Notes: generated by a model not told the origin, from the letters alone. A stretch of DNA of 47,498 nucleotides from Chloroflexota bacterium (GCA_043818215.1 JBDRGC010000459.1:1-47498), one strand, 5' to 3'. Shown: positions 278-40,215, counted from the first letter of the stretch. Numbers and translations: made by a program.

Positions 278-460
278 ACCACCACCCGCTACCCGCCATT
301 CGCCACCCGCCATCCGCCACCCGCCATCCGCCACTCGTCACCCGCCACTCGCCACTCGCCCCCCGCCATTCGCCACCCGCCATTCGCCACTCCCTGACTC
401 GCCCCCCGCCATCCACCACCCGCCCCGCCTCTCCGCCTTCCCCCCCTCCCCACCCCCCCG
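278..460. repeat. Tandem heptamer array CGCCAYY (about 16 units, 278-392) decaying into a C-rich polypyrimidine tract
   Basis: Read directly (cgccatt cgccacc cgccatc ...). The same unit family recurs at 5753-5787 (opposite orientation), 6078-6152, 26896-26924 and 35532-35603. Confidence 0.9.
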
Positions 461-463
461 GCA

Positions 464-472
464 TGGTATAAT
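464..472 (+). promoter_or_regulatory. Candidate extended -10 promoter (TGgTATAAT) for sucCD
   Basis: tggtataat lies 55 nt upstream of the sucC ATG. AAGGAG RBS at 516-521. No clear -35. Confidence 0.4.
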
Positions 473-526
473 CCATCCACATTTTCCCCCAACCGGGTTT
501 TACGTCTCACATTTCAAGGAGTACGA

Positions 527-1666
527 ATGAAGTTGCATGAGTATCACTCCAAATTAATTTTCGCCGAACACGGCATCCCCATTCCTAAAGGTAGGATCGC
601 GACCACCGCATCCGAGGCCAGACAAATTGCCGAAGAACTAGGTGGCCGCGTTGTGGTTAAATCACAGGTTTTGGTCGGGGGACGCGGCAAAGCCGGAGGC
701 ATCCGGTTGGCCAAAAATCCCCAAGAAGCCGAAGAATTAGCCACCCAAATCCTGGGCATGGAAATCAAAGGGCTGCCGGTGCGCAAGGTATTGATCGACG
801 AAGCCGTCAGCATCGAAAAAGAAATCTACCTGGGTATCACCAACGACAGGATTGCCCACAAGCCGGTCATGATGGCCTCATCTGAAGGCGGCGTCGACAT
901 AGAAGAAGTTGCCCGCACCACGCCAGAGAAGATCATCAAAACACATATCGACCCGCTTTTAGGGCTGCGCGATTACCAGGCCCGCGATATCGCCGCTGGT
1001 ATCGACCTGCCACGCGAACATTGGCGCGCCTTCGGAAAGATTGCCCATGGCCTATGGCAGGCTTACAAAAACAGCGATGCAAGTCTAGCCGAGATCAACC
1101 CTCTCATTATCACCGCGGAGGGCCAATTGATGGCTGTGGACGGCAAAATGGTTTTGGACGACAACGCCATCTTCCGCCATCCAGACCTGGCCGAAAAACG
1201 CGATCTGGATATCGAAGCAGAGGCTGAAACCGAGGCCCGCAAGTATGGCCTGTCCTTCATCAAATTGGATGGCGATATTGGGTGCATGGTCAACGGGGCC
1301 GGGTTGGCAATGACCACAATGGACATCATCAAACTCTTCGGCGGGGAACCGGCCAACTTCCTGGATATTGGGGGCGGGGCCAGCGCCGAAAAGGTTGCCG
1401 TGGCCTTCCGAATCATCCTCTCCGATCCCAATATCAAAGCAGTGCTCATCAATATCTTCGGCGGCATCACGCGCGGAGACATGGTCGCCCGCGGCATTTT
1501 GGCTGCCATTGACGAAGCCAGGCCCAAAGTACCGATGATTGTGCGCCTGGCAGGAACCAATGCCGAAGAAGGCCGCCAACTGCTCGCCAACGCCAACATG
1601 ATCACTGCTGACACCATGGCAGACGCCGCGAAAAAAGCTGTCGCCGCCGCGAAGGGAGAGTTATAA
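527..1666 (+). CDS. sucC: Succinyl-CoA synthetase (ADP-forming) beta subunit
   Basis: 379 aa ORF. N-terminus [16 protein letters not shown] and an ATP-grasp plus ligase-CoA layout typical of SucC. RBS present. Followed 4 nt later by sucD. Confidence 0.95.
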
Positions 1667-1670
1667 TCCC

Positions 1671-2531
1671 ATGAGTATTCTAGTAGATAAAAACACCCGC
1701 CTGCTTGGCCAGGGCATCACCGGACGCGAAGGTATCTTTCATACCCAACAAATGCTCGAGTACGGCACCAATGTAGTAGCCGGTGTAACCCCCGAAAAGG
1801 GCGGCGAGTGGATTCTGGATGGCAAAATCCCCATCTTCGATTCGGTGAAGATCGCCAAAGAAGCTACCGGCGCCAACACCAGCGTGATCTTCGTCCCCGC
1901 ACGTTTTTCTGCTGACGCCATGTTTGAGGCCGCCGATGCGGGCATCGAATTGATCGTCTGCATCACCGAGGGCATCCCCGTGCAGGACATGATGCGGGTG
2001 CGCAGCTACCTCGATCAAAAGGGCGTGCGCTTTGTAGGCCCCAACTGCCCCGGCCTGCTCACCCCTGGCGAGGCCAAAGTTGGCATTATCCCCGGAAACA
2101 TTGCCATCCCCGGAAATATCGGCGTGGTGTCCCGCTCTGGCACATTGACTTACGAAGTGCTCTATGCCCTCAAAGAACTAGGCATGGGCGTCAGCACTTG
2201 CGTGGGCATCGGCGGCGACCCCATCAATGGCACCAATTTTATCGATGTACTGCGCCTGTTCGAAGAAGACCCCCAAACAGATAAAGTCGTCCTGATCGGC
2301 GAAATCGGAGGCACGGACGAAGAGAAAGCTGCCGAGTTCATCGCCAAACACATGACCAAGCCCGTGGTCAGCTTCATCGCCGGGCAGACCGCCCCTCCCG
2401 GCAAACGCATGGGGCACGCCGGAGCCATCGTCGAGGGCGGCGAAGGTCTGGCCGCCGACAAAGTCAAAGCATTGGAGGCCGCCGGGGTGAAAGTTGCCAG
2501 ACACCCGGAGGAGATCCCCAGCTTGTTGTAG
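1671..2531 (+). CDS. sucD: Succinyl-CoA synthetase alpha subunit
   Basis: 286 aa ORF with SRSGTLTYE and the MGHAGAI phosphohistidine loop characteristic of SucD. Confidence 0.95.
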
Positions 2532-5431: not shown

Positions 5432-5459
5432 GGACGACCACCAACGGACGATGGACGAC
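5432..5459. repeat. Short heptamer array GGACGAY (4 units)
   Basis: ggacgac caccaac ggacgat ggacgac, starting directly after the polyprenyl synthase stop codon. Confidence 0.7.
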
Positions 5460-5476: not shown

Positions 5477-6891
5477 TTATACAAACCGCATGAATACTTG
5501 ATTGCCCAGTAAACGACCTTTGGGGGTCAAGCGGAGAGTATCTCCCACCCATTCCAGCAATTCCCAATCAACCAATTCTCCAATCTCTTTTCCGAATACA
5601 TCTTCTAAGGCTCGCTCGAACCGGAAATTGAAGGCCGGCCCGGATACTCCCTCTTGGGTGAGGCGTAAGCCCATCATCATGGTTTCGCGCATTTCAGTCT
5701 CGCGGTCGATGGGGAGAGCGGTGATGGTGGCGGGGGTGCGGGGGAAGTGAATGGCGGATGGCGAACGGCGGATGGCGGATGGCGGATGGGAAGTGACGGA
5801 CCCCGTCGGCTGCGCCTCAGGACTGCGTGGCGAGTGGTGGAGAGCGAGGCGGCGGATATATTCTGCAGGGGCCAGCACATTGGCGGTGCGAATTCCGTTG
5901 GCAAAGCCGTGGGCGCCGGCGCCGAAACCAAGATACGGTAAGTTGCGCCAGTATTGCAGATTGTGGCGGCAAGCAAATGGCGAGTTGCGAATGGCGGACA
6001 CTTGCACCTGCACTGCGCTCCGTCGCAAGTGCAGGTGTGGCGAATTAGGAATGGCAAGTTTCGTATCACCACCCCCCACTCGCCACTCGCCATCCGCCGT
6101 TCGCCACTCGCCATTCGCCACTCGCCACTCGCCACTTGCCACTCGCCGTTCACTATTTGCCATCGCCCAATTGGAGATTTCGTATTGAATATATCCAGCT
6201 TGCTCCAGCTTATCGCTGGCTAACTCGTACATATCGGCGGCCAGGTCGGAGTCAGGCTCGGTAAGCAGGCCGCGGGCCACCCGGCTCTGCATGGGGGTAC
6301 CAGCCTCCAATGTCAGGGCGTAAAGGGAGAAATGCTCGGGGCGAGGCCCAGCGACAGAGTCAGCGATGTCTCCCAGTGCTCCAATGTTTGGGCGGGGAGG
6401 CCGAAGATCAGATCCAGGCTGAGATTGTCGAAACCGGCCTGCCGTGCCCATTTCACGGCCTCTGCTACATCCCAGTATGCGTGCTGGCGGCCCAACAGAG
6501 CCAGTTCAGCCGGGCGGGCAGATTGCATTCCCACGCTGAGGCGATTGACTCCCAGGAAGCGCAAATCTCGCAGATAATCGGGAGAGAGAGTTCCCGGGTT
6601 GGCTTCCAGGGTGATCTCGGTGGAAGAGTCGAGAGCGAAGGTAGTATCCAAAACTCGCAGGATGCGGCTGATTTCATCCTGGGGAAGGAGGGAGGGGGTT
6701 CCGCCTCCAAAGTAGATGGTATGCACCGGGATGGCCTCCTCCACCCCCATTGTCAGGCATTGAATCTCCTGCTCGAGGGCGCGCATATACTCCGGGATGA
6801 GGGTTTCCAATCCCGCAAAGGTGTTAAAATCGCAATAGTTGCAACGTTGTTGGCAAAAGGGGATATGTAAATAGATGCTATAAGGGGTCAT
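5477..6891 (-). pseudogene. hemW: Radical SAM HemW/HemN-like (oxygen-independent coproporphyrinogen oxidase family), apparent frameshift plus in-frame repeat insertions
   Basis: The N-terminal ORF (6313-6891) has the CxxxCxxC motif (CQQRCNYC). The C-terminal ORF (5477-6451) continues the family (HFSLYALTLE, CRHNLQYW, GFGAGAH) in another frame. The frames join at a G4/C4 run at 6338-6341. Confidence 0.7.
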
Positions 6892-7032: not shown

Positions 7033-7150
7033 TCTTGGCAACGACTTACTCTCCCAGGGGGCTGCCCCCCAAGTACCATCAGCGCTGACGGGCTTAACTG
7101 CCGGGTTCGGGATGTAACCGGGTGTACCTCCGCCGCTATAATCACCAAGA
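7033..7150 (-). rRNA. rrf: 5S ribosomal RNA
   Basis: The reverse complement reads TCTTGGTGATTATAGCGGCGGAGG...CCCGAACCCGG...GGGAGAGTAAGTCGTTGCCAAGA, with the terminal helix I pairing. Confidence 0.9.
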
Positions 7151-7289
7151 AACTTTATTCACAATGTTAATTTGTACCATCTCAACAAAATGGGAGAAGA
7201 AGGTAGGTTCAAAGCCACCGCTTCTCCTTTATTAGTTAAGTTATATCAACTAAATAGTGTTTTCGAATAGTTCTGAGTTCTCCGCACCA

Positions 7290-10280
<2,991 letters not shown>

Positions 10281-10561
10281 TTACGTGATGCGGAGAAATC
10301 AAAACTATTCGTTATATTTTTTACGCAATTACACTATTTAGTTGGTAAGGTACTATTCCGGCGGTTAGCTGCCGGTGGGTGCTTCTCACGTATGTCAGAA
10401 GCACCCACCGATTGCCAACTATTTACCTGATAATTTACGCACAGCGACCCGGCAAATCGCCGGGTCGCAAACATCCCAAACGATCATACCTTTTACTTGC
10501 TCAGACGATCAGGCCACTCGTACGCAAACGCTCTTTCCTTTACTCGAAGTCGAAGCTCAAG

Positions 10562-10634
10562 TGGAGATGAGGGGACTCGAACCCCTGGCCTCCGCCTTGC
10601 AAAGGCGGCGCTCTCCCATCTGAGCTACATCCCC
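10562..10634 (-). tRNA. tRNA-Ala (anticodon UGC)
   Basis: The reverse complement is GGGGATGTAGCTCAGATGGGAGAGCGCCGCCTTTGCAAGGCGGAGGCCAGGGGTTCGAGTCCCCTCATCTCCA. G3:U70 is present. CCA is not encoded. Confidence 0.95.
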
Positions 10635-10717
10635 AGGTCAGTTATCATTATCCAGTCGTCAGTGTTCAGTTTTATTTCCACTGATTACCGGTTAGTAAAA
10701 ACTGGTTACTGAGACTG

Positions 10718-10791
<74 letters not shown>

Positions 10792-10970
10792 TTTCTTCAC
10801 AACACTTCAGCAAGTTCAGGGTATGGCTCAAGGCAGGTCTTGACAACTGAGGAGTGACAGAAAGCTACCCATTCCAGGGTTTCCTCGACACCGGTCGAGG
10901 ATAGTTTTAGAAAAGGAGTAGAGCGATAATCCGTACCATAATAGTACCAGATTATTCTCAGGTCTCCATA

Positions 10971-12492
<1,522 letters not shown>

Positions 12493-12596
12493 GCAAAAAA
12501 CGCATCCGAAGATGCGGGATTTACGTTCTAGAATTGGGCTCTAGCTTGCTTTCTGTCACTCTTCAGTTGTCAAGGTTCTATTTGTGAAGCGGGCGG

Positions 12597-13490: not shown

Positions 13491-13538
13491 GAATCAGCGA
13501 ATCAGCGAGTCGGCGAGTCGGCGAGTCGGCGAGTCGGG
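13491..13538. repeat. 8-mer tandem array GAATCAGC/GAGTCGGC (6 units)
   Basis: Read directly. Fills the recR-ybaB spacer. Confidence 0.85.
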
Positions 13539-13896: not shown

Positions 13897-13952
13897 GTTT
13901 CAGTTTTCAGTTTTCAGTATTCAGTATTCAGTATTCAGTATTCAGTGATCAG
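13897..13952. repeat. Heptamer array TTTTCAG/TATTCAG (8 units)
   Basis: Read directly. Fills the ybaB-dnaX spacer. Confidence 0.9.
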
Positions 13953-13977
13953 TCAGTCAATGTCATTAAGTGATCGA

Positions 13978-15553: not shown

Positions 15554-15616
15554 AAGACTGGAGACTGGAGACTGGAGACTGGAGACTGGAGACTGGAGAC
15601 TGGAGACTGGAGACTG
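15554..15616. repeat. Heptamer array GGAGACT (9 units)
   Basis: Read directly. Confidence 0.95.
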
Positions 15617-15677
15617 GGAGAAGTGTAACAGACCGTGGGGAGGTGGTCAATCAACTTGGCGGTTTTTCGATTTCCCA

Positions 15678-15840
15678 GCAGTCGGCGGTCGGTGGTCAGT
15701 GGTCGGCGGTCGGCGGTCGGCGGTCGGTGGTCGGCGGTCAGCGGTCGGTGGTCGGCGGTCAGCAGTCGGCGGTCAGCAGTCGGCGGTCGGTGGTCGGCGG
15801 TCGGCAGTCGGCGATCGGTGGTCGGCGGTCGGCTATCGGC
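15678..15840. repeat. Heptamer array GGTCGGY/GGTCAGY (about 23 units, 163 nt)
   Basis: Read directly. Stop-free on both strands, so it generates spurious ORFs (15313-15939, 15635-15856). Confidence 0.95.
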
Positions 15841-16575
15841 TCACGGCACTCGATAAGTAGCACGCTCATTGCCGTCGACATCCAACAGGGTGACAACCTC
15901 GCCCGCTTCCCACACCGCCTCCGGTTCGCTCCAAAATAAGTGCATCACTGTGTCTACGCCAACTTTGGTGTACAGGTTGACAGCCCCATCGGAGAAGAGG
16001 GTTATGTGAGGAAATGTGTAGATATGGCCATCTTCATCTTTAAGCAGCCAGCCTGCGAGGGAGAGCGATCCATCGCCGACTCCTAAAAGCTGCACCCGCT
16101 CCGAGGCCAGGTCGCCCACACCGAACACGGCGACAATTTCAATCTGACCGTCATCCACGGGGGAGGAGGTAGCTTCCGGGGGCAGTTCCTCACCCGTAAC
16201 GGCGGCGGGCGGTTCGGCAGTGGTGGTATCTTCCGGGGCAGGTACAAAGATGATCTCTCCGGTTCCTATGGAATTCGGATCCGTAAAGCCGTTGATTTCC
16301 AGCAACTCATCCACGCTGATGTCAAACATCAAGGCGATTTCACCCAAAGTTTCACCAGGGCTGACCTGATAGGGCTGCAAGGAGATGGTGGGCGTGGGTA
16401 CGGCTTCAACCGGGATCGGAGTCGAGGTTGCCTCAGACGGTAGAACAGACACCGGATCGAGGCTTTCGGTCTCGGAGCTATGTGTCCGGTCCCAAATGCT
16501 CAAAACGAGCAGCGTGGTGCAGACTGACACAATGACGTTAATTAATAAGTAGTAAGCCAGACGTTTCCACTGCAT
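15841..16575 (-). CDS. Membrane-anchored LysM domain protein with a C-terminal lamin-tail-like (LTD) domain
   Basis: N-terminal TM helix. LysM signature (YQVSPGETLGEIALMFDISVDELLEINGF). The C-terminus has the pattern SL.GW.L.D.DGH.YTFP...L..G..V.LYT typical of LTD. GAGG RBS. Confidence 0.7.
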   Translation of the reverse strand: MQWKRLAYYLLINVIVSVCTTLLVLSIWDRTHSSETESLDPVSVLPSEATSTPIPVEAVPTPTISLQPYQVSPGETLGEIALMFDISVDELLEINGFTDPNSIGTGEIIFVPAPEDTTTAEPPAAVTGEELPPEATSSPVDDGQIEIVAVFGVGDLASERVQLLGVGDGSLSLAGWLLKDEDGHIYTFPHITLFSDGAVNLYTKVGVDTVMHLFWSEPEAVWEAGEVVTLLDVDGNERATYRVP

Positions 16576-16645: not shown

Positions 16646-16692
16646 TTGAAACGTGAAACGTGAAACGATTTTATCACGCTTCACGCTTCACG
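16646..16692. repeat. Inverted heptamer arrays (TT/GTGAAAC x3 then CGCTTCA x2)
   Basis: Read directly. The arms are near-complementary. Confidence 0.8.
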
Positions 16693-18089: not shown

Positions 18090-18562
18090 AACAAAAACTC
18101 GGCAATCTAGGGATTGTCACTACAACACTCGAACAAGTTGTCAACTGGAGCCGCACCAGGGCTATGTGGCCTTTGCTGTCTGGTTTGGCTTGTTGCGCAA
18201 TCGAGATGATGTGCGCTGAGGCCTCCCACTACGATATGAGCCGCTTCGGAATGGAACTTATGCGCGCCAGCCCACGGCAATCTGATCTACTGATCGTGGC
18301 CGGACGTGTGACCTGCAAGATGGCTCCCGTGATACGGCGTCTTTACGATCAGATGCCTGACCCAAAATGGGTGATTGCAATGGGTGACTGCGCCTCTTGC
18401 GGAGGTGTTTTCAATAACTATGCCATCGTCCAAGGGGCAGATGAAGTTGTCCCTGTGGATGTATATATTGCTGGTTGTCCCCCCCGCCCTGAAGTATTAA
18501 TCCACGGCATTCTCACCCTTTACGAAAAGGTGAAGGCGGAGAAACTTACGAAGTGGCAGTGA
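18080..18562 (+). CDS. nuoB: NADH-quinone oxidoreductase subunit B
   Basis: 160 aa. Cysteines for cluster N2 ([24 protein letters not shown]). Overlaps nuoA by 10 nt. Confidence 0.95.
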
Positions 18563-18563
18563 G

Positions 18564-18755: not shown

Positions 18756-18761
18756 ACCATC

Positions 18762-19274: not shown

Positions 19275-19328
19275 AACGCATCCCACTCCGCTACGCTTCG
19301 GGGACTACGTCACGCTTCACGCACCACG
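19263..19328. repeat. GTGAAAS / CGCTTCAC repeat pair in the nuoC-nuoD spacer
   Basis: Read directly. The nuoC stop codon lies inside the first unit. Confidence 0.7.
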
Positions 19329-19336
19329 AGGTAAGC

Positions 19337-21366: not shown

Positions 21367-21395
21367 TGCAATTCAAAAACAGAAGAGGTTTTGTC

Positions 21396-21965: not shown

Positions 21966-21988
21966 CAAAATCAATTTTGGAGCAAATC

Positions 21989-23314: not shown

Positions 23315-23546
23315 TACAAATAAAATCATCCAACTTAAGATGGAGCAAACTATATTCTAATAACCCAGGTTGCACATGACTCGGCTTTGCCGAGAGCAAA
23401 GCGGCGCGTTTTTGAGCAATTTAGTTTGAGCAAAGCGAGCTGTCGGACGCAAAACGCCGAGCAGGTGAATAAACCGATATACATACGCCAGAGCCTACTC
23501 AAAACGAAGCACGAGTTTATTTGCGCCGCGCAGAAGATCTCTACCA

Positions 23547-23876
23547 ATGGTTGACGAAGCTGTTGTAAACACTGTAAGAAAATATCTCCGGACACTCGAT
23601 GCTCAAGGCATTCCCGCACCTTTTGGGGTTGTCTATGGCTCTCAAGCACGCGGCACAACGCATGAGTGGAGCGATATAGATTTATTGGTTGTTTCTCCAA
23701 TGTTCGACAAACAACGCAAGAGAGAAGATTGGGTAAATATCTAGCTTATCGCCGCCCGCACCGACAGCCGCATCGAGCCAATCCCGGTCGGCGAGCGGCA
23801 GTACCAGGAAGACGATAGCAGCGCAATTATCGAGATTGCCCGGCGTGAAGGGCAAATCATCCCACTGGCAGAATAA
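23547..23876 (+). pseudogene. Minimal nucleotidyltransferase (MNT, HEPN partner) interrupted by an in-frame TAG
   Basis: GSQARGTTHEWSDIDLLVV (the GSxxRG...DxD motif). The frame continues after TAG (23742-23744) as LIAARTDSRIEPIPV...IIPLAE*, giving about 109 codons in total. Confidence 0.65.
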
Positions 23877-23879
23877 CGT

Positions 23880-25142
23880 ATGGACAATTACAAATACATC
23901 CTACTCCGACATCGCGACATTCCCGAGATCGACAAACTTGCAATCTACCGTACCCACGGTGGATTCGAGGCCTTCGAACAAGTTGTCACATCCATGCAGA
24001 CTAGCGAAGTCACCGGGGTTGTCAAAGCCTCCGGGCTGCGCGGCCGCGGCGGAGCTGGATTCCCCACTGGTCTCAAGTGGGCCTTCATGGACAATAATAA
24101 CTGGCCCCACTACGTGGTCGCCAATGCCGACGAATCCGAGCCGGGCACCTTCAAAGACCGCGAAATCATGGAAAGCAATCCCTTCCAATTTCTCGAAGGT
24201 GTTGCCATCGCATCCTATGCGGTGGGGGCCAACGCGGCTTACATTTATTGCCGCGGCGAATTCTGGCAGGCAGCCCACTATCTCGACGAGAAAATCGCCG
24301 AGCTGGAAGCAGCCGGATTGCTGGGCGACAACTTGTTTGGCACAGACTACTCCCTGAGGATTTACACCCACCTGGGAGCCGGGGCTTACATCTGCGGTGA
24401 GGAAACTGCGCTGCTGGAATCAATGGAAGGCAAACGCGGCCAACCTCGTCTGCGCCCTCCCTTCCCCCCCTCTTATGGATTATTCGGCAAACCCACAGTA
24501 GTCAACAACGTCGAGACTCTCACCAATTTACCGCCTATCATCACCAACGGCGGAGAATGGTACAAGAATTTGGGCACCGAAGATACTGCCGGCGTCAAGA
24601 TATTCAGCCTCTCCGGCTGCGTCAACAAACCTGGGAACTACGAATTGCCCTTCGGCACCACATTCCGCGAGTTGATCTTCGAGCACGGCGGAGGCATTGC
24701 CAACGGCAACAAGATCAAAGCCATCCTGCCCGCGGGAGCATCATCGTCCATCACCGCCGCCACCGAGGAAGTCCTGGACACCCCCATGGATTACGCCTCT
24801 GTGCGCAGCATTGGCGCCGAATTGGGTTCAGCATCCGTGATCATCATCGACGACTCCTTTAGCATCGACTGGGTCATCAACAAAACACTCCGTTTCTTCA
24901 GACACGAATCCTGCGGCAAATGCACCCCCTGCCGCGAGGGTAATTACTGGATGCAGCACATCATCGAGCGCATTCACGACGGCGAAGCTGCTCCAAACGA
25001 TGTGGAACTGCTGCAAAGCGTCGCCCACCAGATTCAAGACAAATGCTTCTGCGCCCTGGGCGAATTTTCAATCCAGGCTGTGCTCACCGGCATCGAGCGC
25101 TTCCCAGAGGATTTCGAAGCGAAAGTGAGACGTGAAACGTAA
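23880..25142 (+). CDS. nuoF: NADH-quinone oxidoreductase subunit F (FMN, 4Fe-4S)
   Basis: 420 aa. GLRGRGGAGFPTG, ESEPGTFKDR, ESCGKCTPCREG. Confidence 0.95.
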   Translation: MDNYKYILLRHRDIPEIDKLAIYRTHGGFEAFEQVVTSMQTSEVTGVVKASGLRGRGGAGFPTGLKWAFMDNNNWPHYVVANADESEPGTFKDREIMESNPFQFLEGVAIASYAVGANAAYIYCRGEFWQAAHYLDEKIAELEAAGLLGDNLFGTDYSLRIYTHLGAGAYICGEETALLESMEGKRGQPRLRPPFPPSYGLFGKPTVVNNVETLTNLPPIITNGGEWYKNLGTEDTAGVKIFSLSGCVNKPGNYELPFGTTFRELIFEHGGGIANGNKIKAILPAGASSSITAATEEVLDTPMDYASVRSIGAELGSASVIIIDDSFSIDWVINKTLRFFRHESCGKCTPCREGNYWMQHIIERIHDGEAAPNDVELLQSVAHQIQDKCFCALGEFSIQAVLTGIERFPEDFEAKVRRET

Positions 25143-25204
25143 AACGTGAATCACGCCTCACGTACACGTTTCACTCATCACTTATCACGTTTCACGCATC
25201 ACGG
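25121..25204. repeat. GTGARAC / CACG-type heptamer repeats in the nuoF-nuoG spacer
   Basis: Read directly. The nuoF stop codon lies within the array. Confidence 0.75.
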
Positions 25205-25211
25205 ACAACCC

Positions 25212-27701
25212 ATGAGCAAACAAATCACCCTCACCATCAACGGCCAACAAGTCACCGTGCCCGCGGGCACATTAATCGTTGACGCCGCCAAAAAGATCGG
25301 CATCGACATCCCCGTATTCTGCTACCACCCAAAAATGGAGCCGGTCGGCATGTGCCGAATGTGTCTGGTCGAAATTGGCCGCCCAGTGCGCGACCGCGCC
25401 ACCGGGGAACTCGTCACCGAGGCAGACGGCACACCAAAAATCCAATTCGGGCCAAAACTCGAAACCGCCTGCACCGTGCCTGTCTCCGAGGGCATGGTTG
25501 TCGATGGCCTGAGCGAGAAAGTCCAGGAAGCCCGCAAAGGCACAGTGGAATTTCTGCTCACATCCCACCCGTTGGATTGTCCCGTCTGCGACAAAGGCGG
25601 CGAGTGCTCCCTCCAAGACCTGGCCCTGGCTTACGGAGCCAGCGAGAGCCGCTTCATTTTCGATGAAAAACAACACGCCGAAAAACACATCCCCCTGGGC
25701 GATCTTATCTTCCTCGACCGGGAGCGCTGCATCCAATGTGCGCGCTGTATCCGCTTCCAACGCGACATCGCCGGCGACGCTGTGCTTGAGTTTTACGAGC
25801 GCGGCCGCCGCACCAACATCGTCACTTTCTCCGAACCCGGCTTCGACTCCTACTGGTCAGGCAACACCACCGACCTGTGTCCCGTGGGCGCCCTCACCAG
25901 CACCGATTTCCGTTTCGGCGCCCGCTCCTGGGAACTCAAACACACCGCCTCGATTTGCTCTCACTGCCCAGTGGGTTGCAACCTGAGTATCGACATCCGG
26001 CGAGAAGCTAAAACTGGCGGCGATTTCGCCATCAAGCGCATAATGCCCCGCCAAAACGAGCAAGTCAACGAGATTTGGATCTGCGACAAAGGCCGCTTTG
26101 CCCACCATTTCACCGACAGCGCAGACCGCCTGACTCAGCCGCTGATCCGCAAAGATGGAAAACTGACTCCTGCCACGTGGGAGGAAGCTCTGGACGTGGT
26201 GGCGAAAAACCTTTCTGGAATTGGGGATGGGTTGCTGACCCTGGTGAGTGGCCGGCTGCCCAACGAAGACTTGTACAATCTCCACAAGCTGACCGATGGT
26301 CTCGGTGGTAAAACGGCACTCTACACCCATACCGCCGGCGGCGACCTGACAGCCCAGTTGGGGCTGAGCGTAGGCAGCAATCTCGCAGACCTGGGCGAAG
26401 GCGACGCCATTTTGGTAGTTGCCAGCGACCTGGAAGAAGAAGCCCCCATGTGGTACCTGCGAGTCAAAGCCGCCGCCGAACGGGGCGCAACCCTGATTGT
26501 CGCCAACCCCCGCGAGACAAAACTTGATCGCTATGCGACGCATAAAGTCCGCTACGCTTATGGCGAAGAAACTGCCATTGTGGGACGAATTGGAAATTCG
26601 TCCTACGGATTTGACGAGGCCAAGAACGCGGTGATCTTCTTCGGCAGCGAGGGAATCGGGCTGGAAGCATCCGCTGCCCTGGTACAAGCCTGCGCTAACT
26701 TGCTGGTCGAGTCCGGTCACACTGGCAGGCCCAATAACGGTCTCGTCGGTGTGTGGCCACGGGCCAACGAACAAGGCGCCTGGGATATGGGCTTCCGACC
26801 CATTGCAGACCTGAAGGCCGCCCTCCACTACGCCAAAGCACGCTACATCGTAGCATCTGATCCCGTCGGAGATGATCCGGCCATGTATGAATTACTCGCC
26901 ACACGCCACTCGCCACTCGCCACTTTCACCGTCGTTCAGGAATTATTTCTCACCGAAACCGCCAGACTGGCCGACGTCGTGCTGCCCGCGCAGGCTATCA
27001 CCGAGCGCGAGGGCAGTTTCACATCCGGCGAGAGGCGCGTGCAACGTTTCTACCTGGCTACCCACCCCAAAGGTGAAACCCGCCCCGATTTCGATATCGC
27101 CGCCCAGATCGGCGCGCGATTGGGCGTGGAACTCAAAGGTCGCTTCCCATCCCGGGTATTTCCACAAATTGCCGCCGAAATCCCCGCTTACGAGGATATC
27201 ACCTACCAGAAGTTGGCCGAAGTCAGCGAGCAATGGCCCATAATCGGGCGCGGTGATCTCCATTACGGCGGCGCATCTTACGAGAACAAACTGGGGTTGG
27301 GCGTGCAGCTTGCGTCACAAGGCAAGGCTAAAGGTCAAATTAGCGGTAAATTGGAAACTGGTAAATTGGAAACTGGTAAATTGGGAATTGGTATACTGGT
27401 AAATGGGAAATTGGTGGCTGTGCCTATCACCCGCCTGTACGACCAGGGCCGGATGGTGCTTACCTCCGAGGTGCTGCATCCCCGATTGCCGAAACCTTAT
27501 ATTGCCGTCAACCCTGGCGATGCCCAAAAACACAAAGTGACCGATGGTATGACGGTTAACCTCAACGTAAACGGCGCGACAGCCACCGCACTCGTCAAAG
27601 TGGACAAGAACGTACCCGCTGGCTTTGCGCTGATTCCCCGCAGCATGGGAATTGCCGTTACCGAGCCAACTGCAATTGAAATTCAGGTTGCTGAGGCGTG
27701 A
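25212..27701 (+). CDS. nuoG: NADH-quinone oxidoreductase subunit G
   Basis: 2Fe-2S and 4Fe-4S cysteine clusters (CYHPKMEPVGMCRMC, HPLDCPVCDKGGEC, CIQCARC) plus a molybdopterin-like domain. I trimmed the start to the ATG at 25212. Contains two in-frame repeat tracts. Confidence 0.95.
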   Translation: MSKQITLTINGQQVTVPAGTLIVDAAKKIGIDIPVFCYHPKMEPVGMCRMCLVEIGRPVRDRATGELVTEADGTPKIQFGPKLETACTVPVSEGMVVDGLSEKVQEARKGTVEFLLTSHPLDCPVCDKGGECSLQDLALAYGASESRFIFDEKQHAEKHIPLGDLIFLDRERCIQCARCIRFQRDIAGDAVLEFYERGRRTNIVTFSEPGFDSYWSGNTTDLCPVGALTSTDFRFGARSWELKHTASICSHCPVGCNLSIDIRREAKTGGDFAIKRIMPRQNEQVNEIWICDKGRFAHHFTDSADRLTQPLIRKDGKLTPATWEEALDVVAKNLSGIGDGLLTLVSGRLPNEDLYNLHKLTDGLGGKTALYTHTAGGDLTAQLGLSVGSNLADLGEGDAILVVASDLEEEAPMWYLRVKAAAERGATLIVANPRETKLDRYATHKVRYAYGEETAIVGRIGNSSYGFDEAKNAVIFFGSEGIGLEASAALVQACANLLVESGHTGRPNNGLVGVWPRANEQGAWDMGFRPIADLKAALHYAKARYIVASDPVGDDPAMYELLATRHSPLATFTVVQELFLTETARLADVVLPAQAITEREGSFTSGERRVQRFYLATHPKGETRPDFDIAAQIGARLGVELKGRFPSRVFPQIAAEIPAYEDITYQKLAEVSEQWPIIGRGDLHYGGASYENKLGLGVQLASQGKAKGQISGKLETGKLETGKLGIGILVNGKLVAVPITRLYDQGRMVLTSEVLHPRLPKPYIAVNPGDAQKHKVTDGMTVNLNVNGATATALVKVDKNVPAGFALIPRSMGIAVTEPTAIEIQVAEA

Positions 27702-28739: not shown

Positions 28740-29264
28740 ATGCGAGTTCCAGAACTTGCCCGCGTTAACGAAATCGGCAGAGGTATGTGGATCACCTTCA
28801 AATCCATGTTCGAGAAGCCGGTGACTTTCCAATATCCGGAGGTCAAGCGGCCAACCCCGGCGCGCTTCCGCGGCCGTCACGTACTTAATCGCTACGAGAA
28901 CGGCCTCGAAAAGTGCATTGGCTGCTCACTGTGCGCGGCAGCTTGTCCATCTGGGGCTATCTTCGTCGAAGCCAGCGAAAACACCGACTCAGAACGCTAC
29001 TCTCCCGGCGAACGCTACGCCAGCACTTATGAAATAAACTTGCTGCGTTGCATTTACTGCGGTTTCTGTGAGGACGCTTGTCCCACAGAGGCCATCACAC
29101 TCGAGCATGAATACGAACTATCCTTCTCCAACCGGCAAGAAGCGATCTACCCCAAAGAGAAATTGATCGTTCCGGTACCCGAGGGCGGGAAGTCCACCCC
29201 GCAGGAAGTGGAACCGGGTATCTTTGACCGCTCCGTGCCGGTGATGGAAAACACCAGAGATTAG
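28740..29264 (+). CDS. nuoI: NADH-quinone oxidoreductase subunit I (2x 4Fe-4S)
   Basis: CIGCSLCAAACP and CIYCGFCEDACP. Confidence 0.95.
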   Translation: MRVPELARVNEIGRGMWITFKSMFEKPVTFQYPEVKRPTPARFRGRHVLNRYENGLEKCIGCSLCAAACPSGAIFVEASENTDSERYSPGERYASTYEINLLRCIYCGFCEDACPTEAITLEHEYELSFSNRQEAIYPKEKLIVPVPEGGKSTPQEVEPGIFDRSVPVMENTRD

Positions 29265-29342
29265 AGATTAGAGATTAGAGATTGGAGACTGGTTCCTTGT
29301 CCCTAGTTCCTGGTTCCTAGTCCCTGGTCACTAATCACTGAT
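29259..29342. repeat. Heptamer array GATTAGA/GATTGGA followed by CCTAGT/CCTGGT-type repeats
   Basis: Read directly. The nuoI TAG stop is part of the first GATTAGA unit. Confidence 0.85.
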
Positions 29343-29872: not shown

Positions 29873-29920
29873 TACATGATACGTGAAGTTGCAAATCACG
29901 TGTCACTCATCACTCATCAC

Positions 29921-30043
29921 TCAATGTCATTAAGTTAAGCCATCGGCGGATTACGAATCCGCCTGGAGCGTGCAAGAACCCCGATTTTGCTCCTGTCGGA
30001 TCCGTGATCCGACAGCCACTGGCTCTTAACTTAATGACATTGA
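29921..30043. mobile_element. 123-bp MITE-like element with perfect 19-bp terminal inverted repeats and an 8-bp flanking direct repeat
   Basis: TCAATGTCATTAAGTTAAG (29921-29939) is the exact reverse complement of 30025-30043. It is flanked by ctcatcac (29913-29920) and ctcatcac (30044-30051). Internal hairpins are GGCGGAT-tacga-ATCCGCC and CTGTCGGATC-cgt-GATCCGACAG. Confidence 0.7.
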
Positions 30044-30076
30044 CTCATCACTCGTCACGCATCACGGAGAAACACC

Positions 30077-30379: not shown

Positions 30380-30380
30380 T

Positions 30381-30497
30381 TAGGAAACTAGGAAACCAGG
30401 AAATCAGGAACATAACCGATCTACTGATTTACTGATCTACTGATCTACTGATCTACTGATCTACTGGTTTACTAATTTACTGGTTTACTGATTCCTG
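30381..30497. repeat. 8-mer arrays TAGGAAAC-type (4 units) then GATCTACT/GGTTTACT-type (10 units)
   Basis: Read directly. Fills the convergent nuoK / SCP2 spacer. Confidence 0.9.
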
Positions 30498-30506
30498 CTT
30501 CCCCCC

Positions 30507-30849: not shown

Positions 30850-30973
30850 GGTTATTGGTGATTTGGGGTTAGGGGTTAGGGGTTAGGGACTAGGGACTAG
30901 GGACTAGGGATTTGATACCAAGTTACCAGATTCCTAGTCACCTAGTCACTAGTCGCCTAGTACCTAATCACCC
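30850..30973. repeat. Opposed heptamer arrays (GGTTAGG/GACTAGG versus CCTAGTC) forming an imperfect hairpin
   Basis: Read directly. The right arm overlaps the thiolase stop codon. Confidence 0.85.
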
Positions 30974-32170
30974 AAGATTCTCGAAAATTCCTGCCGCGCC
31001 CATACCGCCACCGATACACATGGTGACCAGGCCAAACTTCACATCGCGGCGTTTCATCTCGTAGATCATCTGGGTGGTCAGCTTGGCGCCGGTGCATCCC
31101 AGGGGGTGACCGAGTGCGATGGCGCCGCCGTTGACGTTGGTAATATCACCATCGAGGCCCAGTTCACGCATGACCGCCAATCCTTGAGCCGCAAAGGCCT
31201 CATTGAGTTCGATCAATCCGATATCCTCCAGCGACATGCCAGTCAGTTTCATCACTTTGGGCACTGCCTTCATCGGGCCGATTCCCATGAGTTCGGGCGG
31301 CACACCGGCAACAGCAAAAGCGATGAAGCGCACTAGCGGTGTCAGGCCTAGCGATTCGGCTTTGGCGCGCGACATGATGACCACGCCAGCAGCCCCGTCC
31401 GACATCTGGGAGGAGTTGCCAGCCGTCACCGTGCCGCCATCTTTGAAGGCCGGGCGGAGGCGGGCTAAAGCTTCCAGGCTGGTATCGGCCCGCGGCCCTT
31501 CGTCGCGTGCGAAAGTGAAACTGCGCGTCTTAGGCTTGCCGTTCGCTCCGGGCGTGATGATCTCGACTTCCAGCGGGACAATCTCCGGGTCGAAACGGCC
31601 CGAGGTCACCGCGTCGGAGGCGCGCTGGTTGCTGAGCAGGGCGAAGGCATCCTGATCTGCGCGGCTGATGCCGTATTGCTCGGCCACGTTCTCCGCCGTC
31701 AACCCCATGCTGGTGAAGGCCTCGAGGTAATCCACCGCCAGATGGGGGGTGGGGGAAAATTTGTATCCGGCCATAGGAACCATGCTCATCGATTCGACAC
31801 CTCCGGCAATGATCACCTCGGCCTGCCCGGCCATGATGGCGTGGGCCGCGTGAGCAATGCTTTGCAGCCCAGATGAGCAGAAACGATTGACAGTCTCTGC
31901 GGGCACCGAGACTGGCAGCCCGGCCCGGAAGCCGATCAAGCGGGCCACATTCATGCCCTGCTCTCCCTCGGGGAAAGCGCAGCCGATCACCAAATCATCG
32001 ATATCTTCTAAATCTAAGGGTTCGACTTCTTTCAACAAAGCGCGGATCACCGCCGTAGCCATCTCCTCGGGACGCACTGTCACCAGGCTGCCACGTCTGG
32101 CTTTGCCCACCGCCGTTCGTTTAGCTGCCACAATGACGGGATCGCGGGAGGGATTGAGTTGGTTTGTCAT
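30968..32170 (-). CDS. fadA: Acetyl-CoA C-acyltransferase (thiolase)
   Basis: 400 aa. Active-site context NRFCSSGLQ (Cys), NEAFA and GGAIALGHPLGCTG. Confidence 0.95.
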   Translation of the reverse strand: MTNQLNPSRDPVIVAAKRTAVGKARRGSLVTVRPEEMATAVIRALLKEVEPLDLEDIDDLVIGCAFPEGEQGMNVARLIGFRAGLPVSVPAETVNRFCSSGLQSIAHAAHAIMAGQAEVIIAGGVESMSMVPMAGYKFSPTPHLAVDYLEAFTSMGLTAENVAEQYGISRADQDAFALLSNQRASDAVTSGRFDPEIVPLEVEIITPGANGKPKTRSFTFARDEGPRADTSLEALARLRPAFKDGGTVTAGNSSQMSDGAAGVVIMSRAKAESLGLTPLVRFIAFAVAGVPPELMGIGPMKAVPKVMKLTGMSLEDIGLIELNEAFAAQGLAVMRELGLDGDITNVNGGAIALGHPLGCTGAKLTTQMIYEMKRRDVKFGLVTMCIGGGMGAAGIFENLG

Positions 32171-32189
32171 ATTGGTTTTCTCCTTTTTT

Positions 32190-32342
32190 TGTACACGGAT
32201 AACACGGATTTTACGGATTCTTTTTTTCTATTGTGGTTGTTTGATCCAAGACAATGAACCTTTACGTTCATTATCAAAGACCTTACTATCAAATATACGT
32301 GTTATCCGTGTTATCCGTGTCATCCGTGCAATCCGTGTACTA
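32190..32342. mobile_element. Deletion derivative of the adjacent GxxExxY cassette (both ends plus the last roughly 20 codons only)
   Basis: 32190-32286 is about 94% identical to 32349-32445, and 32287-32342 is near-identical to 32844-32899. The 398 bp from 32446 to 32843 of the full copy are missing. Confidence 0.75.
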
Positions 32343-32348
32343 TTTTTC

Positions 32349-32899
32349 TGTACACGGATAACACGGATTTTACGGATTCTTTTTTTCTATTGCGATTGTT
32401 TGATCCAAGACAATGAACCTTTACGCTCATTGTCAAAGACCTTACGTTCGAATTCGGCTTTAGGGCCAAAGTTGAGTAATAGGCCGACTTCGATTTCAGT
32501 CGCTTTGAGATAGCTAAGTAGTTGAGCTTCGTGTTCTTCGGTCAATTCCCGAATCGCTTTCAGTTCTACCATCACCAGATTATCGATCAAAAGATCGGCA
32601 ATATAATTCCCAACAACCTGACCTTCGAAGTACACAGTAATCGGAATTTGCTGCTGAACAACCAAGCCAAGTTTACGCAACCTGATTGCCAGAGCGTTCT
32701 CACAAACTTTCTCCGAGAAACCATATCCGATTTCATTGTACACATCGAAGAAAGCCCCGATGATCTTCTCAGTCAAATCGCTGTGTTTACCCTGAAACTG
32801 CATCCTGGTTAGTTTTCGGCGATTCATCAAACCGCTCTTCATATATCAAATATCCGTATTATCCGTGTTATCCGTGTTATCCGTGCAATCCGTGTACTA
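32349..32899. mobile_element. GxxExxY gene cassette bracketed by inverted arrays of an ACACGGATA-type 9-mer
   Basis: Left end TGTACACGGATAACACGGATTTTACGGAT. Right end ATCCGTATTATCCGTGTTATCCGTGTTATCCGTGCAATCCGTGTACTA. The terminal GTACACGGAT is inverted exactly. Confidence 0.6.
32387..32842 (-). CDS. GxxExxY family protein (PD-(D/E)XK nuclease superfamily)
   Basis: GYGFSEKVCENAL (GxxExx[Y to C]) and ADLLIDNLVMVELKA (D...ExK). The start is uncertain (alternatives at 32827 and 32803). Confidence 0.8.
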   Translation of the reverse strand: MKSGLMNRRKLTRMQFQGKHSDLTEKIIGAFFDVYNEIGYGFSEKVCENALAIRLRKLGLVVQQQIPITVYFEGQVVGNYIADLLIDNLVMVELKAIRELTEEHEAQLLSYLKATEIEVGLLLNFGPKAEFERKVFDNERKGSLSWIKQSQ

Positions 32900-35348: not shown

Positions 35349-35447
35349 GATTAGAGATTAGAGATTGGAGATTAGAGATTGGAGATTGGAGATTGGAGAT
35401 TGGAGATTGGAGATTGGGGGGTAAGGGTTAGAGGTTAGAGGTTAGGG
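35349..35447. repeat. Heptamer arrays GATTAGA/GATTGGA (10 units) then GGTTAGR (4 units)
   Basis: Read directly. Confidence 0.95.
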
Positions 35448-35531
35448 AATCTATCCTGAGTGAAATCAAAGGATAAGTTTTAGTGGGCTGTGAACAGTGT
35501 ACCGGGCGTGTGCGGGGGCGGGGCAGGCTGG

Positions 35532-35603
35532 GCCATTCGTAACTCGCCATTCGCCATTCGCCATCCGCCATTCGCCATTCGCCATTCGCCATTCGCCACT
35601 CGC
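35532..35603. repeat. Heptamer array CGCCATT (10 units)
   Basis: Read directly. Ends 1 nt before the stop codon of the next gene. Confidence 0.95.
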
Positions 35604-38730: not shown

Positions 38731-38752
38731 GGTTCAATCTCCTTTTGGGGGG

Positions 38753-38938
38753 TTGGTATATTGGTATGTTGGTATATTGGTATATTGGTTCGCTGATTCG
38801 GTGATCCGTTGATCCATTGATTCGCCGATTCGCCGATTCGCTGATTCGCCGATTCGTTGATTCGTTGATTCGCTGATTCGCCGATTCGTTGATTCGCTGA
38901 TTCGCCGATTCGTTGATTCGCTGATTCGCCGATTCGCC
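38753..38938. repeat. 8-mer TTGGTATA array (4-5 units) followed by heptamer GATTCGY array (about 21 units)
   Basis: Read directly. Fills the spacer between the two ACAD genes. Confidence 0.95.
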
Positions 38939-38953
38939 AACCTACCCAACTAA

Positions 38954-40048
38954 CTAAACAATAGCCAATCCTGAGAATGTGGCGAAGCCGCGTCCGTTGC
39001 GCATCCACATCTCTACGGGATGCTCGCGGATATAGCCGTGCCCGCCGAGGATTTGCACAGCCCGGTCGGTGACCATCATGCACGTATCCGCGGCGCCGCT
39101 CAAGGCCAGGTAGGCTTGCTTGCTGGCTTCTGCCATGCCTTTGTCCAGCATCCAGGCCGCCTCCCAAGCCAGCAGGCGGATAGCCTCGATTTCGGTACCC
39201 ATCTCAGCAATCATGAAAGCAATGGCCTGCTTTTGGGCCACCTTGACCCCGAAGACGTCGCGATCTTTGGCGTATGCCATAGAGTAGTCCAGGGCAGCTT
39301 TAGATACGCCGATGGCCATAGCCGCCAGCGCCACGTTTGAGGCAGCCAAAATGGGGGCAAATTCGTGCCCCTCCGGGCCGCCCAGGCGGTTCTCTTTGGG
39401 CACGCGCAGCCCTTCGAGTACGAGCGGGGACAGCGGCAAGGCGTTGAGACCCAGCAACTTCTGCCTTTCGCCAACTTCCAACCCTTCGGCATTCCCAGGA
39501 ACGATGAAACCCTGTGTACGCCCGTCCAATTGGGCATAGATAATCATAGCTTCGGCGTTGGGGGCAAATGGCACATAGGATTTTTTGCCGGTGAGCACAT
39601 AATCATCTCCATCGGCCTCGGCTATCGTTTTGAGATCGTTGGGGTCGAAATCGAAGCCAGGCTCCATCAGAGCGGCGGTATAAGGCTTCCACTCCATTTC
39701 GATGACCGGGGGGATGAATTTCTTCTTTTGTACTTCGCTGCCAGCCAGCAAAATGGGGGTGGCGAACAACCCGGGGGTCATCACTGCCAGCGCACCGGAG
39801 AGGTCGCCGTAGGCCATCTCTTCAGCAGCCAGCACTCCCGTCACGGCAGAGCGATCCCCAAAGCCATCATAGGCCTCAGGGGTAGAGGCCTGAAGATAGC
39901 CCAACTCCCAACCTTTCTCGATCAATTCGGGTGGCAATTGGCCTTCTTCGTCGGCGTCACGGGCGGCGGCGCGCAGATCATCCATAGCATAGCGCCTGAT
40001 GGCATCGACTAACATTTTTTGTTCTTCAGATGGTTCGAACGAATACAT
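38954..40048 (-). CDS. Acyl-CoA dehydrogenase family protein lacking the canonical C-terminal catalytic Glu
   Basis: 364 aa with an ACAD fold. The position aligned to YEG reads FSG (…RNGRGFATFSGLAIV*). AAGGAGG RBS. Confidence 0.8.
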   Translation of the reverse strand: MYSFEPSEEQKMLVDAIRRYAMDDLRAAARDADEEGQLPPELIEKGWELGYLQASTPEAYDGFGDRSAVTGVLAAEEMAYGDLSGALAVMTPGLFATPILLAGSEVQKKKFIPPVIEMEWKPYTAALMEPGFDFDPNDLKTIAEADGDDYVLTGKKSYVPFAPNAEAMIIYAQLDGRTQGFIVPGNAEGLEVGERQKLLGLNALPLSPLVLEGLRVPKENRLGGPEGHEFAPILAASNVALAAMAIGVSKAALDYSMAYAKDRDVFGVKVAQKQAIAFMIAEMGTEIEAIRLLAWEAAWMLDKGMAEASKQAYLALSGAADTCMMVTDRAVQILGGHGYIREHPVEMWMRNGRGFATFSGLAIV

Positions 40049-40070
40049 GGGGGGCCTCCTTATTTATAAA

Positions 40071-40215
40071 GCGTGATAAGTGAAACGTGATGCGGGGGTG
40101 CGGGGGTGCGGGGGTGCGGGGGTGCGGGGGTGCGGGGGTGCGGGGGTGCGGGGGTGCGGGAATATGTTATCACGTTTCGCGCTTCACGCTCCACGCTTCA
40201 CGTCTTCACGTTTCA
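40071..40215. repeat. 8-mer array TGCGGGGG (8 units, 40091-40160) flanked by inverted GTGAAAC-type arms
   Basis: Read directly. The left arm is gtgataagtgaaacgtgat and the right arm is atcacgtttcgcgcttcacg... The stop codon of the MBL gene lies in the right arm. Confidence 0.9.

Follow-up and report, generated by a model that had tools for sequence, protein, structure and literature searches.

The DNA analysed here, called the window, is a stretch of 47,498 nucleotides that forms one contig (C459; JBDRGC010000459.1) of the draft genome GCA_043818215.1, from an uncultured Chloroflexota bacterium of groundwater. The genome is an Anaerolineales metagenome-assembled genome (MAG) of 4.69 Mb in 529 contigs, with an N50 of 12.6 kb and 53% G+C. 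Pfam and Rfam scans identified sucCD, an rRNA operon on the minus strand (7033–12497), recR-ybaB-dnaX, nuoABCDE, nuoFGHIJK and a beta-oxidation cluster. Many spacers between these genes are occupied by tandem arrays of short units, mostly heptamers and octamers. We describe these arrays as a very dense, extreme many-family Chloroflexota example of the known class of heptamer simple-sequence repeats (SSRs), whose function is unproven.

The arrays are real. They can be read directly from the sequence, and Tandem Repeats Finder (TRF) recovers 20 of the 22 stretches listed in a first-pass annotation of the window, with the same units. TRF reports 61 rows of score at least 30 and 41 of score at least 50, against 5.7 and 0.0 per shuffle in 20 dinucleotide-preserving shuffles. 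The listing needs some correction. Three interrupted units at 5432–5459 lie under the TRF threshold and are too weak to count. The repeat at 38791–38938, taken for a heptamer of about 21 copies, is the octamer CGAATCRR in 18.6 copies, and the GTGAAAC array at 19263–19328 consists of two mini-arrays of two to three units each, on either side of a dispersed 24-nt core. Arrays at 5751–5789, 6076–6167, 26894–26924, 29289–29333, 29903–29923, 30043–30065, 30382–30410, 30933–30972, 32294–32338, 32851–32895 and 35532–35603 had been left out. Almost every intergenic spacer was said to carry an array. This applies locally, from 13.4 to 40.3 kb, where about 15 of the 19 protein-gene spacers of at least 40 nt do so (counted from the spacer table), and overstates the case for the whole window, in which 17 of 39 spacers of at least 15 nt carry one; genome-wide the share is about 45% of spacers of at least 21 nt. 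None of the rRNA-operon spacers in the window has an array.

Upstream of sucC, about 20 units of the heptamer CGCCAYY followed by a C-rich 8-mer tract (282–459) are pyrimidine-rich on the sucC sense strand. The open reading frame (ORF) 3–482 on the minus strand, which contains this array, matches no Pfam family and is not among the called genes. Five copies of the octamer GCGAGTCG fill the recR-ybaB spacer (13497–13537), seven of the heptamer TTCAGTA lie between ybaB and dnaX (13899–13953), and a perfect array of nine AGACTGG units (15555–15617) stands immediately upstream of the likely dnaX start. The 23 units of GGTCGGY between the LysM gene and dnaX (15681–15840) are unstructured as RNA, with a folding z score of +3.7. 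A small hairpin at 16647–16692 (z −3.8) is made of (TGAAACG)x3, an 8-nt loop and (TCACGCT)x2.7.

The nuo genes, on the plus strand, are separated by a series of such structures. A hairpin of about 190 nt (18562–18755; minimum free energy −73 kcal/mol, z −7.0) occupies the 199-nt nuoB-nuoC spacer; its purine arm is (TTGGTANN)x11 and its pyrimidine arm (ACCAATNN)x12, and the hairpin is identical in a second assembly. The nuoC-nuoD spacer (19263–19336) holds two to three GTGAAAC-type and CACGCTT-type units around the 24-nt core. GTGAAAC-type and ATCACGT-type arms form a hairpin between nuoF and nuoG (25121–25207, z −4.1), whose first arm includes the nuoF stop and last codons. Between nuoI and nuoJ, (AGAGATT)x4.7 is followed by (CTGGTTC-type)x5.7 (29256–29333, z −2.4), with the nuoI stop in the first arm. 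The TCACTCA-type array of the nuoJ-nuoK spacer (29903–30065, z −8.4) is interrupted by some 125 nt of palindromic inserted sequence, and (AGGAAACC)x3.6 then (GATCTACT)x9.4 lie between nuoK and a convergent SCP2 gene (30382–30492).

On the minus strand, the SCP2-thiolase spacer forms a hairpin from a GGGGTTA/TAGGGAC arm and a CCTAGTCA arm (30865–30972, z −6.8). A nonamer hairpin module (AATCCGTGT / ACACGGATN) spans 32171–32386 (z −10.3), and TRF finds a second nonamer array at 32851–32895. At 35349–35603, (GATTGGA)x10 with GGTTAGG-type units, about 85 nt of unique sequence and (GCCATTC)x10 follow one another; the two arrays display no mutual complementarity. Between two acyl-CoA dehydrogenase genes, (TTGGTATA)x4.6 runs directly into (TTCGCTGA)x18.6 (38753–38937). 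The hairpin at 40049–40215 (z −2.4) has GTGAAGC-type and CACGTTT-type arms around a loop of perfect (TGCGGGGG)x8.8, and the stop of the MBL gene falls in its first arm. Altogether, 9 of the 16 array-bearing spacers in the window fold with z from −2.4 to −10; among the rest are spacers without pairing or structure. On direct reading, repeat units do contain the stops of nuoC, nuoF, nuoI and the MBL gene, as had been claimed. The thiolase stop, for which the same was claimed, lies within the TRF span 30933–30972 of an array.

Some arrays lie inside coding sequence. Two stop-free heptamer arrays (5751–5789 and 6076–6167, minus strand) are in frame in a HemN_C-domain ORF and encode ...GEWRVANGEWRTADGEWRV... 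NuoG contains ACTCGCC x4.4 in frame (26894–26924, plus strand), a 5-residue insertion relative to most homologues, and a 15-nt array of GKLET repeats in a variable linker (27345–27414, plus strand), which adds about 10 residues. Both NuoG arrays are insertions in loops that vary among homologues. Stop-free arrays also extend ORF calls artificially, as for dnaX from 15654, nuoD from 19271, nuoG from 25146 and the ORF 3–482(−). Long ORFs that cross stop-free arrays should be distrusted in annotation, for example 3–482(−) and dnaX, nuoD and nuoG in their 5′-extended forms. As a separate observation, the HemN/HemW-like gene (5477–6891, minus strand) is split into two overlapping ORFs (6313–6891 and 5477–6451) and its recognised domain is C-terminal only; the gene, with its two in-frame arrays, may be frameshifted or decaying.

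Genome-wide counts were based on self-trained gene calls (4,144 genes, 80% coding). TRF finds 4,161 merged arrays in the whole genome, or 4.4% of the DNA, of which 1,646 have at least 4 copies and at least 28 nt (median 56 nt, longest 407 nt). The periods of arrays with at least four copies peak sharply, with 1,086 heptamers, 357 octamers and 93 nonamers. The share of arrays is 15.1% in non-coding DNA and 1.7% in coding DNA, so that the intergenic enrichment which the first-pass annotation had proposed to check is about 9-fold. Periods 7 and 8 are 76–79% non-coding and 21–24% coding, whereas periods 6 and 12 lie in coding DNA in 82–87% of cases. The 1,568 heptamer arrays reduce to 255 canonical units, where an even draw would give about 865, and the octamers fall into 201 classes. 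The families GGAGATT (158 arrays), ACCATTT (the AAATGGT family, 116), GTGAAAC (63), CGGCGGT (54) and GGGGATT/AATCCCC (53) illustrate the recurrence of units at unlinked loci, a claim which the census extends to hundreds of loci. The unit families of the window are those of the whole genome. In independent metagenomes, word depth rises 10- to 60-fold at array bins. Contig ends fall in arrays 2.7 times as often as random windows do; they thus break up the assembly, and their number is probably an underestimate.

Adjacent arrays tend to be inverted complements of each other. With at most one mismatch per unit, 148 of 492 pairs are complementary, against 18 expected, and the median loop is 14 nt. 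The pairs are also strongly oriented. Counted over all pairs and without gene calls, the purine-rich array comes first in 397 cases and the pyrimidine-rich array in 35. By spacer type, the ratio is 222:21 (co-directional), 59:9 (divergent) and 31:3 (convergent); in the pooled relatives it is 35:3. Hence, on either strand, the purine-rich array leads and the pyrimidine-rich array trails, irrespective of the orientation of the flanking genes. Read in the mRNA sense, purine-rich arrays prevail beside stops (188:41) and pyrimidine-rich arrays beside starts (237:38), and 4-mers resembling a Shine-Dalgarno sequence occur in 0.3% of units near starts versus 30% near stops. The two descriptions are mathematically one rule; gene orientation therefore cannot tell whether the cause acts on the mRNA or on the DNA.

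Two causes of the polarity were considered and set aside. Avoidance of Shine-Dalgarno mimics cannot be the sole cause, because convergent spacers, which have no start codon, still show the polarity; false ribosome-binding sites are thus not the whole explanation. Rho avoidance is a weak candidate: the genome has rho, yet 90 unpaired C-rich arrays adjoin starts, and spacer-filling arrays are unbiased (23:21). Cyanobacteria, which follow the purine-first rule, are not known to have Rho, which also counts against this cause.

The arrays were said to begin usually within a few nucleotides of a stop codon. The first array of a spacer is at most 6 nt from the stop in 38% of cases. Arrays abut stops in 221 cases, a modest excess over the 117 expected when arrays are slid along their spacers. 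With 20 nt before the start reserved, the expectation rises to 179 and most of the excess vanishes. At the other end, 89 spacers have their last array no more than 6 nt from the start, versus 117 expected.

Unit counts vary between near-identical assemblies, which was another check proposed by the first-pass annotation. Assembly L173, 99.8% identical to the window over 6.8 kb without a gap, counts 8 GCCGACC units against 23 in the window (15681–15840). At the array of 15555–15617, it has (AGTCTTC)x8 in place of the (AGTCTCC)x9 and single AGTCTTC of the window. Contigs of run X1 match the flank and first units of the long allele, run X3, made from the same sample, has a contig over most of the long array, and X1 additionally has a contig with the flank of the short allele. 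In a population about 95% identical, seen in run X6, one 15-nt unit of nuoG is missing. Assembly L092, 99.2% identical, contains the nonamer hairpin module of 32171–32386 as a 159-nt tandem duplicate, which is single in the window. Another assembly is identical to the window over 18180–21775, arrays included. Look-ups by exact protein for YbaB, NuoI, the acyl-CoA dehydrogenase and the hypothetical protein returned no contig. Whole-unit change (15 units) together with homogenisation to a variant unit is the trace that slippage-type turnover would leave in the sequence. The earlier contrast between dispersed families and local slippage is therefore a false choice, since both kinds of change separate these strains.

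One junction deserves caution. In the window, the gene after nuoK is a convergent SCP2 gene and not nuoL (30380–30506), and L092 diverges from the window within the octamer array after nuoK (30382–30492). The nuoLMN genes are located on another contig, directly behind the same octamer family as the nuoK-SCP2 array (C227, region around 11840–11990). Thus the junction at about 30.4 kb is either a true rearrangement through arrays or an assembly mis-join.

The relatives place these arrays in a phylogenetic frame. The best 80 NuoD relatives listed from a species-genome collection are all Chloroflexota, almost all of them MAGs, mostly under the label Anaerolineales or Anaerolineae; the host is therefore not a cyanobacterium, as the first-pass annotation had concluded. 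The closest of these 80 is 85% identical, and no other member of the genus of the present genome came up among the relatives searched. The 80 relatives have a syntenic nuo operon, with spacers mostly of 20–60 nt, and short heptamer or octamer arrays of other units occur at nuoB-C and at nuoI-J in 16 relatives each. Heptamer arrays number 18–45 per Mb in three near-contiguous relatives (G011, G008 and G030), 62 in an order-level relative with a complete chromosome (G034; arrays to about 100 nt), and 225 and 412 in two genomes of the same family (G016 and G002), compared with 338 in the present genome. Of 28 heptamer arrays of G002, 15 have a unit that is also used here, versus 5% by chance. A graded, patchy distribution of this kind is what one would expect of a lineage-specific mutational regime, not of an ancient conserved system.

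Taken together, the arrays are long SSRs of heptamers and octamers, of the same class as the short tandemly repeated repetitive (STRR) sequences of cyanobacteria and the G-rich heptamers of Xanthomonas and Nostoc, probably born by slippage and kept by a selection filter. Slipped-strand misalignment during replication or repair would create and resize the arrays, with units gained or lost in blocks and a single variant unit able to sweep an array. Purifying selection would then retain arrays only where lengths other than multiples of three are harmless, that is, in intergenic DNA or as stop-free inserts in variable protein loops. As regards contingency loci, in which the unit number reversibly switches the frame or promoter strength of a gene, the polymorphism in unit number found here falls in spacers or concerns frame-neutral 15-nt units. 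A second filter or bias would set the orientation so that the purine-rich strand reads outward from the neighbouring gene, from which it follows that paired arrays would consist of a purine arm and then a pyrimidine arm. Such pairs would fold the spacer into a long hairpin in polycistronic RNA. Any effect of the hairpin is probably incidental and similar to that of repetitive extragenic palindromic (REP) sequences, in that it would hinder exonucleases or attenuate mildly rather than act as a dedicated regulator.

Several observations weigh against this slippage-and-filter account. Slippage alone does not explain why one unit, GGAGATT, is common to 158 unlinked arrays, why heptamer arrays are restricted to 255 of 1,172 possible unit classes, or why the polarity of 397:35 exists and persists at 31:3 in convergent spacers without a start codon. 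Two sub-families are built on conserved cores of 24 and 21 nt, and array dispersal is therefore partly element-like. In addition, every assembly of this organism is short-read and no long-read run of it is listed, so the lengths of arrays exceeding the read length may be mis-estimated.

The class itself is well documented. According to the account in PMC4679880 of the survey by Mrazek, Guo and Shah (2007), heptanucleotides are the commonest long SSR across bacteria, have a scattered phylogenetic spread and are attributed to polymerase slippage, units of 3n being favoured in genes; Burkholderia, cyanobacteria, actinobacteria and Xanthomonas are among the richest genomes that it names. The present arrays resemble those long SSRs (5- to 11-nt units, as described there) in exceeding chance, in the dominance of heptamers and in the 3n periods of coding DNA. 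Rehm et al. (2015; PMC4692102) described G-rich heptamers, GGGAATC in Xanthomonas and GGGGA(C/T)T in Nostoc PCC 7120, which are mainly intergenic, lie near ORF ends at hundreds of loci and frequently form convergent pairs that give stem-loops. Their G-rich strand is the coding strand downstream of a gene and the non-coding strand upstream, and array lengths differ among close relatives. All of these features, the mainly intergenic position, the location at ORF ends, the inverted pairs, the strand rule and the strain differences in length, are found here, and the GGGGATT unit, with its 53 arrays, is the Nostoc unit of PMC4692102. The "independent occurrence" proposed in the first-pass annotation thus undersells the precedent, given what PMC4679880 relates on the frequency of heptamers and PMC4692102 on pairing and strand rule.

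The differences from Xanthomonas and Nostoc are in scale and sequence. The families here are many and unrelated (255 heptamer and 201 octamer classes), arrays also lie in frame within genes, the host belongs to a different phylum, and the density is several-fold above that of Xanthomonas campestris (1,086 heptamer arrays of at least four copies versus about 186). Judged by unit sequence alone, runs of three to four G, as in the G-quadruplex units of Xanthomonas and Nostoc, occur in a minority of families (GGGGATT, TGCGGGGG, GGGGTTA), and the largest families (GGAGATT, ACCATTT, GTGAAAC) have none. As the strand rule is the same in these systems, it is independent of G-quadruplex sequences and of a single phylum.

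With the STRR sequences of heterocystous cyanobacteria (Calothrix, Nostoc, Anabaena) the present arrays share the dispersal of tandem heptamers in non-coding DNA, which justifies the label STRR-like that they had been given for heptamer and octamer arrays at many non-coding loci. Bacteria of the class Anaerolineae are typically filamentous, like the hosts of STRR sequences. Unlike STRR sequences, the arrays occur in an Anaerolineales host whose NDH-1 operon includes nuoEFG, in far more families, and as octamers and nonamers too. The CCCCAAT type, named in PMC4692102, is the only one of the STRR units known to be in common. The TAACTGA direct repeats of marine Beggiatoaceae (MacGregor 2015, PMC4679880) are likewise abundant, intergenic and near translation starts, in a filamentous bacterium. 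They form a single unit family in which, as that paper has it, inverted pairing is rare (one indirect repeat in about 170 sets), unlike the many paired families here, and TAACTGA is essentially absent from the present genome (1 array). The arrays also differ from CRISPR loci, with repeats of 23–50 nt and unique spacers of similar length, in that their units are 7–9 nt, contiguous and spacerless. A literature search for heptamer arrays in Chloroflexi, Anaerolineae or Chloroflexota found no paper.

It is unlikely, in our judgement, that the arrays are selected operon punctuation, with hairpins acting as REP-like stabilisers, factor-independent attenuators, bidirectional terminators or stop-start devices of translational coupling. 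REP sequences and bacterial interspersed mosaic elements (BIMEs) of enterobacteria are intergenic, often within operons, hairpin-forming and co-transcribed. The intergenic hairpins in operons found here resemble them, and this likely functional analogy would cover any mRNA-level effect. In favour of punctuation are the strong hairpins of 9 of the 16 window spacers, the 397:35 polarity in co-directional, divergent and convergent spacers alike, its recurrence in relatives (35:3), and the Shine-Dalgarno region left free (89 spacers versus 117 expected). Arrays of relatives lie at the same nuo junctions, nuoB-C and nuoI-J, in 16 of about 62–78 loci each. RNA contigs cross arrays as well: metatranscriptome contigs span nuoC, the array and nuoD (19192–19344) and the 3′ end of the thiolase gene with its array (30884–31105), so that the arrays are probably transcribed together with their operons, DNA carry-over being possible.

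The structural tests, however, argue against a selected RNA. There is no sign of selected mRNA structure in the arm mismatches or in the folding. A comparison of unit consensus sequences gives no excess of G.U over A.C in the sense RNA (31 versus 42), and the antisense RNA is the more stable in 320 spacers, the sense RNA in 148. Canonical intrinsic terminators are not enriched at arrays (16 found, 20 expected). Many arrays are unpaired and unstructured, such as that of 15681–15840, array lengths vary among near-identical strains, and relatives with ordinary nuo spacers of 20–50 nt do without arrays. Translational insulation fares no better. A heptamer containing a stop codon does place a stop in all three frames every 21 nt, as had been pointed out, and this arithmetic is correct; selection has left no sign of it, a stop being present on the sense strand in 32% of intergenic heptamer units versus 33% of random ones. 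In arrays abutting stops, the share of stop-containing units is 33.5%, again no enrichment over the 33% of random heptamers, and insulation is therefore unsupported and was rejected.

As a separate observation, two RNA runs (X26 and X13) contain short contigs made purely of the GATCTACT-type octamer of 30420–30466, at a word depth of up to 486 where host genes are near 3. Stable fragments of array RNA, a signal summed over many loci or other organisms are possible sources.

The polarity is common to unrelated unit families, to relatives and to all spacer types, which raises the idea of a general, undescribed constraint on any transcribed or replicated inverted repeat. We regard this as quite improbable. 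Under such a constraint, a weak hybrid of pyrimidine RNA and purine DNA at the 3′ arm could act as a bidirectional attenuator free of a U-tract, or, alternatively, a dedicated array-making activity could have strand asymmetry built in. If the constraint exists, this genome, whose oriented pairs number over 400, would rank with the best natural data sets from which to define it.

Very unlikely is an origin of the arrays as parts of miniature elements, similar to MITEs (miniature transposable elements with inverted repeats) or REPs, that transposed and then decayed, so that the recurrence of families would reflect copying. Some structures do look element-like. The 24-nt core CCCACTCCGCTACGCTTCGGGGAC (19282–19305 in the window) has 75 copies in the genome, against 0 for a reversed control, almost always within TCACGNT heptamer arrays and sometimes tandemly doubled. 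A 21-nt core of about 20 copies is conserved between the arms of the AAATGGT family (116 arrays). The insert of about 125 nt that splits the nuoJ-nuoK array (29920–30045) is palindromic, with 17-nt inverted ends, AATGTCATTAAGTTAAG, that match 105 genome sites with at most two mismatches; a partial copy lies near 13950–13965. By its sequence this element looks like a MITE, though the inverted ends and conserved body of MITEs are not found in the arrays in general. The genome also encodes Y1 transposases. On the other hand, in 6 of the 8 large families tested, the 30-nt flanks on either side of the arrays hold almost no information (0.00–0.08 bits), and those families are therefore not transposon copies; copy number, moreover, changes by whole units inside arrays.

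Classical REPs are conserved palindromes of 20–40 nt mobilised by REP-associated tyrosine transposases (RAYTs). The arms here are instead tandem arrays of many families, flanks and loops are mostly unconserved, and no Y1 transposase adjoins them. An association with RAYT was rejected: the genome has five Y1_Tnp matches, with only scattered short arrays of unrelated units nearby, and the 24-nt, 21-nt and 17-nt cores all lie more than 1.5 kb from any of them. PDDEXK_3 genes as carriers of a nonamer array were rejected too; that nonamer family flanks 1 of 5 copies, and another copy has one unrelated 9-mer array nearby. Independently, matches to Y1 transposases (IS200/RAYT-like) adjoin tandem repeats of long period (81, 131 and 94 nt) on contigs C303 (about 6.0–6.8 kb), C430 (about 13.8–14.7 kb) and C270 (about 41.1–41.5 kb), which may represent a true REP/RAYT-type system distinct from the heptamer arrays.

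That short-read assemblers created or inflated the arrays is scarcely credible and, as to the existence of arrays, largely refuted: an array is found at 16% of contig ends versus 6% of random windows, Logan contigs end at arrays, and the nuoK-SCP2 junction may be a mis-join, or a true rearrangement, through a common octamer family, but the arrays are imperfect with variant units in fixed order, a second assembly is identical across 3.6 kb including the 199-nt spacer, independently built raw-run contigs match 15614–15725 and 15731–15900 without mismatch, NuoG stays open through its in-frame arrays, and the complete chromosome of the order-level relative, assumed from its completeness to be long-read, has arrays of up to about 100 nt.

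The arrays have practical consequences. Heptamer arrays are the commonest long SSR in bacteria and have no accepted origin or function. Here they lengthen the spacers of essential operons and add peptides to enzymes such as NuoG. They disrupt short-read assembly, as their presence at 16% of contig ends indicates, and ambiguous joins are possible, for example at nuoK. Their unit counts can be used as strain-level length markers.

Three further features of the window were observed. A stretch of low G+C (43–47%) at 21061–23700, between nuoE and nuoF, contains a small HEPN-like ORF, a hypothetical gene and an Amidase_6 gene. This stretch is missing (depth 0) from the population of about 95% identity in run X6 and from all 80 relatives, whose nuoE-nuoF gap has a median of 29 nt. 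Between sucD and a small minus-strand ORF, a 77-nt unit is repeated 2.7 times in tandem (2651–2861) with a hairpin of its own within it (GTTTGTAGTAG...CTACTACAAAC), and similar CTACTACAAAC motifs occur on further contigs. Finally, a 21-nt repeat of 8.2 copies (42380–42552) encodes TNTPKPP-type heptapeptides in a Pro/Thr-rich hypothetical protein adjoining a HAMP-cyclase gene; this is an ordinary coding repeat, outside the heptamer phenomenon.

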